Notes under the pieces: model-generated
Database searches by the model: none
Told to the model about the DNA's origin: nothing
What the model saw: only the letters and a program-made list of their open reading frames with translations
Shown here: positions 6,073 through 6,488 of the stretch, in pieces
How positions within the stretch are numbered: the first letter of the stretch is position 1
How the letters are laid out: each line of letters begins with the position of its first letter
Origin: a virus
Taxonomy: Duplodnaviria > Heunggongvirae > Uroviricota > Caudoviricetes
Reading direction: 5' to 3' (one strand)
Virus record (IMG/VR): IMGVR_UViG_2671180473_000006
DNA length: 6,957 bases
Position numbers and translations under genes: made by a program

Positions 6073-6488
6073 AAATGTCTCACAATTCAGACGGTTGACA
6101 GTTGTCTGTTTTGCGGGGAGTTTGTTAAAAGAAACTGGCATGGTGAATCCCCCTGTGCGGAGGGGCAATCAGCGAGTAGGTATATGGGATAATCGCGGAT
6201 TCAGGTGCTGGTACTGAATTCACCGGGAGGCACCCGGCATCATGCAATGGCACATAGCGCCACTCTCCAGCCCTCTCCGGAGGGGCTTTTCTGTGCCGGA
6301 TACATCACAGTTTCTGGAACCTTAGGTACTACAGTATCAGTCAGGGTGCTATATTTTCAGATGTGATGAAAGCCTGTCAGCAGGCAGGGCGTATCGGAAA
6401 TGACCCAGTAGAGAAAACGTTGACTCAGATACCGGTGCTGAGTTACCGGGAAACCGGCATCACATGACCGCTATCCTGAGGTGTACTG

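Follow-up and report, generated by a model that had tools for sequence, protein, structure and literature searches.

Prophage STnc100-family small-RNA genes downstream of a tRNA cluster in a Caudoviricetes contig

The stretch at positions 6088-6488 of IMG/VR virus record IMGVR_UViG_2671180473_000006 (Caudoviricetes), a 6,957-nucleotide (nt) piece of DNA called the window below, most probably holds prophage small-RNA (sRNA) genes of the STnc100 family and no vacant toxin slot; we put the probability of this at about 0.9. A reading made without database searches (the sequence-only reading) had flagged the stretch as a 400-bp region free of open reading frames (ORFs) at the place where Shiga toxin (Stx) phages carry stxAB, and had offered either an empty or decayed moron site or a small RNA as its content. 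The small RNA is borne out: the region contains an STnc100-family sRNA gene orthologous to EcOnc05 (copy A, 6138..6292, + strand), identified by Rfam match, probe identity, near-identity to Sakai prophage Sp4 and covariation, and a second, diverged STnc100-like unit without a terminator (copy B, 6361..6477, + strand). The feature itself is already known as STnc100/EcOnc05 (Tree 2014; Zhu, Shabalina and Storz 2026); what may go beyond the published literature is only a pseudoknot, P3, and the breadth of conservation of the core.

Family membership and structure of copy A

A search for RNA families, which the sequence-only reading had proposed as a check, was productive: cmscan of 5700-6489 against Rfam 15 places STnc100 (RF02076) at 6109-6298 on the + strand with 123.6 bits (E 1.5e-28), over the full length of the model (positions 1-206 of 206) and far over its curated gathering score of 47 bits. 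The northern probe for EcOnc05 (Tree 2014) is identical in 35 of 35 bases to window 6167-6201 on the minus strand, so the RNA lies on the + strand; the EcOnc06 probe of the same study matches 6180-6214 in 34 of 35. The same tRNAs stand in Sakai prophage Sp4, and after them comes a near-identical counterpart of window 6033-6296 (RF02076, 138 bits). Positions 6033-6489, the flagged region plus 55 nt upstream, are carried over at least 80% of their length by 672 of 5426 complete E. coli genomes, the top ones among the matches listed being 98-99% identical. It had been suggested beforehand that alignment as ordinary conserved sequence in relatives would speak against an RNA gene; the sequence is indeed widely conserved, but so is its structure, and discrete transcripts have been published.

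In copy A, the helices P1 (6138-6145 with 6238-6245), P2 (6149-6153 with 6159-6164, A6161 bulged), P4 (6197-6204 with 6214-6221) and P5 (6223-6227 with 6233-6237, CCGGG-AGGCA-CCCGG) can all form on the + strand, as drawn from the Rfam match and the alignment, and there is a rho-independent terminator at the 3' end. The core is joined to this terminator by a variable single-stranded linker (6246-6269, +), the presumed seed. The terminator (6270-6292, +) had been noticed earlier as a weak hairpin with a T-rich tail; the hairpin is real, but it is more than that description allows, scoring in a terminator scan as the intrinsic terminator of the sRNA (hairpin 6269-6287 followed by TTTTCT, with a 5' arm one base shorter than in relatives). 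Terminator-like sites in 5950-6489 number 4, against 0.2 expected.

Support for the helices comes from comparison across genera. One genome per species was scanned for the 19-mer CACCGGGAGGCACCCGGCA, giving at least 120 loci, mostly in genera of the Enterobacterales with a few in unrelated taxa such as Streptomyces. At the 18 loci run against Rfam, all motif matches examined sit inside above-threshold STnc100 matches, and the units are often tandem and often adjoin tRNA genes. Among 49 cores from many genera in a plain MAFFT alignment, 86.7% of cells pair, as compared with 39-47% after a shift of the partners by 1-3 columns, and 13 pairs are changed on both sides (4 in P1, 3 in P2 and 6 in P4). 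P5 is invariant, in part because the collection motif selects it. A search of the collected loci for TGAGGTGTACTG gave no match.

The fifth pairing, P3, lies outside the Rfam consensus. The strand just 3' of P2 is complementary to the P4 loop, in copy A as 6168-6173 (AUCAGC) with 6207-6212 (GCUGGU) on the + strand, and other genera have different but again complementary segments: CUGGUGU/ACACCGG, ACUGGAUA/UAUCCAGU, AGGCUAC/GUAGCCU and AAGUCACA/UGUGACUU. In register-free duplex tests, matched segments pair at -10.1 kcal/mol and mismatched ones at -8.1, and the mean observed for the matched segments was attained in none of 20000 permutations; 46 of the 49 cores have a run of 5 or more contiguous pairs, and 31 of the 49 beat 95% of shuffles of their own loop (Fisher combined p 6e-28, with relatedness of the cores not fully corrected for in any of these tests). 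An earlier count in fixed MAFFT columns was dropped in favour of these tests: from row to row the register shifts by 1 nt, and for this reason no more than 55.5% of cells paired. P3 is a covariation-supported pseudoknot and may be new. Its loop geometry (2 nt, 6 paired, 1 nt) presumably resembles that of kissing-loop complexes. The 2026 preprint on Pas and STnc100 RNAs (Zhu, Shabalina and Storz) mentions no pseudoknot.

Among the E. coli copies, GGAGGGGC of the P2 3' strand (6149-6166) recurs in the stem of the terminator, GCCC(C)UCUCCGGAGGGGC (6270-6286). This likeness was considered as the basis of an antiterminator switch and set aside; since other genera do not have it, it probably reflects descent.

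Published expression data concern close relatives of these units. In eight prophages of Sakai, Hfq-bound sRNAs occupy the "moron" site 3' of PR', EcOnc05 among them with both a peak in Hfq crosslinking and analysis of cDNA (CRAC) and a northern band of ~222 nt (Tree 2014, Table S2, PMC4104026). EDL933 has 11 STnc100 copies, all transcribed and one confirmed by northern blot (PMC5331693). PasD1 and PasD2 of enteropathogenic E. coli (EPEC), which lie between Q and esterase/holin genes, are homologous to STnc100 in structure (Zhu, Shabalina and Storz, bioRxiv 2026); PasD is Hfq-dependent on northern blots, and its chimeras in RIL-seq, in which interacting RNAs are ligated and sequenced, fall in the last ~50 nt, the site of a UGUGAG seed (Pearl Mizrahi 2021, PMC8550237). 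Judging from this literature on identical or near-identical copies, copy A would be expressed as a discrete Hfq-associated RNA.

On this basis copy A is best pictured as a self-contained unit, in which a weak sigma-70 extended -10 promoter would drive a conserved, pseudoknotted core followed by a variable linker running into the terminator. By orthology with EcOnc05, it would be transcribed in the lysogen and bound by Hfq. Most likely it acts in trans, base pairing through the variable linker and the terminator-proximal segment as RIL-seq showed for PasD, with the conserved core serving as a stabilising or protein-binding scaffold. Copy B is a second, diverged unit whose terminator was removed by insertion of an IS600-like element (IS, insertion sequence).

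The stx junction, copy B and the end of the contig

Does the region nevertheless mark the former seat of stxAB or another moron, now reduced to non-functional spacer? The upstream context is as the sequence-only reading described it: three tRNA genes (5783-6032, by ARAGORN) stand directly 5' of the flagged stretch, and Q, a methyltransferase and ileZ/argN/argO-like tRNAs are the same as those found 5' of stx2. It was also correct that no stx-like ORF follows, there being no Pfam match among the ORFs. The position of stx itself, however, is elsewhere. The tRNA cluster is closed by an intrinsic terminator (6047..6072, +; GGCTCGC-TTTT-GCGGGCC and T8), identified by terminator scan and by alignment to 2619-2667 of the locus of Stx2a phage AP012539 (L005). 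This terminator is common to Stx phages, in which stx2A starts immediately 3' of it, and the order in AP012539 is argO, the same terminator, stx2A, stx2B, an STnc100 copy (154 bits) and a nanS-p homolog. In local alignment, the left flank of stx2AB in AP012539 corresponds to window 6025-6073 and the right flank to 6076-6145, so that the insertion-point equivalent is 6073..6076, with a 1333-bp stx2 cassette standing in place of 6074-6075 only. Because both flanks align around this 2-nt junction, the stx slot lies 5' of the flagged region and not within it.

Between the tRNA terminator and the sRNA module there are no stxA or stxB ORFs or remnants, the two flanks being 2 nt apart. The flagged sequence is moreover highly conserved and encodes a structure-conserved RNA, and the same module coexists with stx in Stx phages; as judged from the alignments, the flagged region is the counterpart of the conserved sRNA module 3' of stxB. 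An empty or decayed moron site is thus scarcely credible here.

The 5' edge of every E. coli-type STnc100 unit carries the boundary motif ctcacaattcag (6079..6090, +). The sequence (c)tcacaattcag stands at this edge whether the unit follows the tRNA terminator (window 6079-6090), stx2B (L005 4004-4015) or copy B (~4517-4528 in L002, the locus of an O121 relative). The motif may mark a boundary of recombination, or else the 5' end of a longer species seen on northern blots. Nearby, an inverted repeat, TGACAG-ttgc-CTGTCA, overlaps TTGACA 5' of a third unit, copy C, in L002 (~4531-4547) and 5' of EcOnc27 (L005 4021-4037); in the window it is degenerate, at 6096-6108 ahead of copy A. This repeat could serve as an operator or, if transcribed, form a hairpin.

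In complete relatives, the gene order is Q antiterminator, a small ORF, a DNA methyltransferase, three tRNAs and then ~975 bp without a real gene, followed by an esterase of the SASA family (nanS-p-like) and a holin. The ~975 bp of the O121 relative consist of three tandem units, of which copy A scores 137 bits and copy C 161 bits with RF02076. The "400 bp" of the flagged region is accordingly an artefact of length, produced by an IS insertion and an assembly gap.

The IS is visible as 11 nt at 6478..6488 (+), the first bases of an IS3-family, IS600-like element. The match to relatives ends at 6477 (T6477 is assignable either to copy B or to the element), and bases 6478-6488 are joined to the flagged region in none of the complete E. 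coli genomes. An identical junction is present in six IMG/VR contigs, and the one of the six that was read, L132, runs on into a 1263-bp element (L132 3088-4350) annotated as an IS3/IS600 family transposase; L132 also has both variants specific to the window, T6240 and a 1-nt deletion in the terminator. In L132 and the window, the element is inserted between the core and the terminator of copy B, and beyond the far IS end L132 carries unrelated sequence, which suggests an IS-mediated rearrangement. IS150 was tried as the cause of the contig end and rejected: only 7 nt (TGTACTG) fit both IS150 ends, with 4 nt left over, and the IMG/VR junction points to the IS600-like element.

Since this element is a repeat, the contig breaks at 6488. 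What follows (6489..6957) is 367 N (6489-6855) and then 102 nt (6856-6957) that repeat 5984-6085 exactly, comprising the 3' half of a tRNA-Arg gene, the terminator and "ctcacaa"; from these it is clear that the window comes from a scaffolded draft and that the flagged region stops at a contig end. Positions 6489-6957 are an assembly join across a repeat, and nothing past 6488 is contiguous biology.

Copy B, which the insertion has deprived of its terminator in this lineage, can be drawn with five helices on the + strand: P1 (6361-6368 with 6458-6465), P2 (6373-6378 with 6383-6388), P3 (6392-6397 with 6432-6437), P4 (6421-6428 with 6438-6445) and P5 (6446-6449 with 6454-6457, with a GAAA loop). 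In relatives its terminator lies ~15 nt past the equivalent of 6477. A putative extended -10 promoter, TGcTATATT (6347..6355, +), has a geometry that fits the family; it ends 9 nt 5' of GAUG, the counterpart of GGUG, and is invariant in diverged phage copies. The complete copy B of L002 scores 30.1 bits with RF02076 (E 0.0011), under the threshold of 47, and the truncated copy in the window gives no RF02076 match at E up to 1. All five substitutions that set P2 of copy B apart from phage vB_EcoS-640R1 preserve pairing, implying constraint at the RNA level. On its drawable helices, copy B is family-member-like, while formally below the STnc100 threshold.

Transcript ends, coding potential and cis-acting contexts

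The promoter of copy A would lie at 6102..6131 (+), with TTGTCT at 6102-6107, an 18-bp spacer, TG at 6123-6124 and TAAAAG at 6126-6131, an arrangement that follows family-wide geometry. Across genera, conservation begins 2-6 nt 5' of GGUGAAUCC, and in many of them varied promoters of the form TTGACx / 17-18 bp / TAnnnT end 7-10 nt 5' of that sequence. The 5' end of PasD2, as estimated from RNA-seq coverage, is at GCAUGGUG. By analogy, transcription of copy A probably starts near 6138. The three promoter-like hexamers listed in the sequence-only reading all exist, but at slightly different positions, and none is a promoter element: TTGACA is at 6095-6100 (not 6097-6102) and does not suit the family-wide geometry, GATAAT is at 6188-6193 (not 6200-6205), inside the variable region of the RNA, and TTGACT is at 6420-6425 (not 6415-6420), in the 5' strand of copy B P4. 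As a candidate -35, TTGACA was rejected: its distance to the -10 is 25 bp, relatives have TTGACT instead, and most family members lack it.

Several observations weigh against the view that copy A is a self-standing Hfq-dependent sRNA gene. A consensus scan finds no promoter for it, and its -10, TAAAAG, does not have the conserved final T. On published northern blots, EcOnc05 (~222 nt) and EcOnc27, the copy 3' of stx2B (~235/247 nt), are longer (Tree 2014, PMC4104026) than the ~156 nt predicted from 6138, so the 5' end of copy A, and hence its promoter, is provisional. The single-sequence fold is no stabler than shuffles (z = -0.70), and since it gives no signal, structural support for copy A comes from covariation only. 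The expression data all come from strains other than that of the window, EcOnc05 is without a validated target, and the core is conserved unusually strongly for a simple Hfq sRNA scaffold.

The size discrepancy bears on another possibility, namely that there is no separate gene and the RNA is a processed 3' trailer of the tRNA operon or of the late transcript. Northern species longer than the distance from promoter to terminator would be explained in this way; a 5' end near ctcacaattcag (6079-6090), which is possible, would fit those sizes, and the motif is conserved at the unit edge with no common promoter preceding it. STnc100 units are also often beside or interleaved with tRNA genes: in one tandem array (L100) they alternate with them, and one core-only unit ends 9 nt 5' of a tRNA, which suggests co-transcription or shared processing there. 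A strong terminator nevertheless separates the tRNAs from the unit in the window, and units in other genera each come with a canonical -35/-10 of their own, placed for a start at P1. The PasD RNAs are 173 and 172 nt by RNA-seq coverage (Table S6, PMC8550237), with the 5' end at GCAUGGUG, and northern blots agree with the predicted sizes of the Pas sRNAs (PMC8550237). Processing from a longer transcript therefore seems quite unlikely as the origin of the RNA.

As to proteins, the statement that the region is free of ORFs holds in so far as there is no credible protein gene, although four mechanical ORFs of 34-77 aa can be drawn in it; none of the four has a Pfam match. The sole PHROG match is phrog_23557 (E 7e-30), to the ORF over copy B, and that family is made up of annotated phage ORFs of unknown function. 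Relatives have an 87-aa ORF on the + strand, from a GTG at the equivalent of 6205 to a stop at that of 6467, and its C-terminal 53 residues match the 55-position profile of phrog_23557; phage records annotate a 55-aa hypothetical protein over copy B, and one EDL933 STnc100 copy has a ribosome-coverage value of 3.2 (PMC5331693). One or more real small proteins could account for these points. In the window, however, a 1-nt deletion splits the ORF and the IS truncates it, yet every RNA helix is kept. The ORF would start inside the P4 loop and run on past the terminator of copy A; in P2 of copy B, substitutions preserve pairs and follow no codon pattern; and in the wider family there are compensatory changes and indels of lengths not divisible by three. 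PHROG families, too, derive from predicted ORFs, and ribosome coverage is low in most EDL933 copies (PMC5331693). A protein product is highly improbable, and the phrog_23557 coding sequences are probably spurious annotation over RNA genes, as is the 42-aa pseudo "hypothetical protein" placed antisense to the sRNA (equivalent of 6127-6252, minus strand) in RefSeq by the Prokaryotic Genome Annotation Pipeline (PGAP).

The wider family occurs in settings that invite a cis-acting interpretation. In other genera, the genes 3' of the last STnc100 unit include holins (at least 6 loci), lysozyme, methylase, GNAT and others. At 10 loci in Klebsiella, Kosakonia and Raoultella, the core stands ~85-225 nt 5' of a KdgM-family porin gene in a chromosomal setting (L044 2880-3200 on the minus strand, L074 1840-2065 on the + strand, L021, L036, L042, L047, L056, L062, L097 and L124). 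In the two that were read (Kosakonia L044 and Klebsiella L074), it lies 100-200 nt 5' of the start codon with no strong terminator between, leaving room for a cis role and possibly a 5' leader at those loci. Tandem arrays reach four copies (L100 3717-5512, L083, L055, L086). A link to sialic acid, raised by cores 5' of nanS-p and of a NanC-like porin, was dropped: the genes found downstream are of mixed kinds, and what comes after the porin in Klebsiella is an unrelated secreted protein of 569 aa.

In such a cis-acting model, the core would sense a ligand or protein, and the terminator would gate read-through into nanS-p and the lysis genes, whether from PR'/tRNA transcripts or from the unit's own promoter; the RNA that ends at the terminator would be a by-product. 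The core does look aptamer-like, having several helices that meet in a junction with invariant bases, as well as a pseudoknot; a terminator comes after it, its units are tandem and in many prophages directly 5' of holin genes, and the porin loci without a strong terminator would suit the model as well. Against this, the heterogeneous neighbours argue against a single riboswitch regulon, the interval between core and terminator is the most variable part with no conserved alternative pairing found in it, the likeness of terminator and P2 is restricted to E. coli copies, and the related RNAs are abundant and stable, bind Hfq and have many partners in trans. We regard it as very unlikely for the window.

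A broader variant deserves mention. The core, comprising P1-P5 with P3 and the invariant junction bases, is conserved from Escherichia to Pantoea, Erwinia and Rahnella, and it could be a domain dedicated to binding a ligand, a protein or RNA polymerase. It would then belong to an unrecognised class of structured RNA filed as an Hfq sRNA, with a cis riboswitch or antitermination role in some contexts (5' of holin genes, or as a porin leader). This we consider unlikely, and a trans-acting sRNA of the STnc100 family is preferred.

Whichever role the core has, an apparently vacant stx position is here a normally occupied sRNA locus, on which pipelines still put hypothetical or pseudo coding sequences. 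STnc100-family sRNAs adjoin stx and lysis genes in many pathogenic E. coli, and the exact unit boundaries, the stx breakpoint and the likely tertiary contact P3 should be of use for mutant design.

Comparison with known systems

A labelling point concerns the tRNA genes that adjoin these units. ARAGORN names the gene at 5783-5858 (anticodon CAT) tRNA-Met, and RefSeq relatives name the identical gene tRNA-Ile (ileZ), a label compatible with a lysidine-modified anticodon.

Copy A shares with Rfam STnc100 the full-length covariance-model match, the helices, the terminator and the context of a prophage late region, and its differences are minor: P1 has a G.U for a G-C pair (T6240), and the terminator arm has lost 1 nt. 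The Rfam model itself includes ~29 nt of upstream sequence that is specific to E. coli and Salmonella and unconserved family-wide, and it is unable to represent the P3 pseudoknot.

PasD1 and PasD2 of EPEC (E2348/69) have the architecture of STnc100 and its position between Q and an esterase or holin gene, and they score 41 and 38 bits with RF02076, under the threshold of 47, which reproduces the published homology. They differ in P5 and in the linker, which carries the UGUGAG seed, and in their canonical TTGACT / 18 bp / TAAAAA promoter; the linker of the window copy, AAUGGCACAUAGCGCCACUCUCCA, has no UGUGAG, so copy A is not a PasD.

The anti-sRNAs AgvB and AsxR occupy the same niche as STnc100, 3' of PR' and ahead of the lysis genes, and like it bind Hfq, but they are 51-60 nt long, lie on the opposite strand and belong to the unrelated families RF02702 and RF02703. 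Neither family has an Rfam match in window 5700-6489 at E up to 1, or in L002 at E up to 0.01. Complete relatives have a convergent minus-strand sRNA of the EcOnc08/21 type 3' of the last STnc100 unit, at a common terminator region (L009 1937-2100, with a probe match at 2012-2046; L002 ~4750-4880), and the two together form the "dyad" of Tree 2014. The window is without this convergent part because of the IS and the gap.

The closest counterparts are EcOnc05 and EcOnc06 (Sakai Sp4 and Sp17), which, as copy A does, follow ileZ/argN/argO and precede a nanS-p-like gene. In Sp4 a lone copy is followed by the convergent sRNAs EcOnc08/21, whereas in the window copy A is followed by copy B and then the IS, and a partner of the EcOnc08/21 kind, if any, would lie beyond the gap. 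In Stx2 phages, the STnc100 copy directly 3' of stx2B is EcOnc27/sRNA103; its partner in Sp5 is the anti-sRNA AsxR (PMC4104026), and variants in the sequence of the copy after stx2B are reported to predict haemolytic uraemic syndrome (PMC12711010). It has in common with copy A the family, the unit edge tcacaattcag...ttgaca, and the core and terminator sequence; it differs in the variable region and the linker, and in following stx2B instead of the tRNA terminator.

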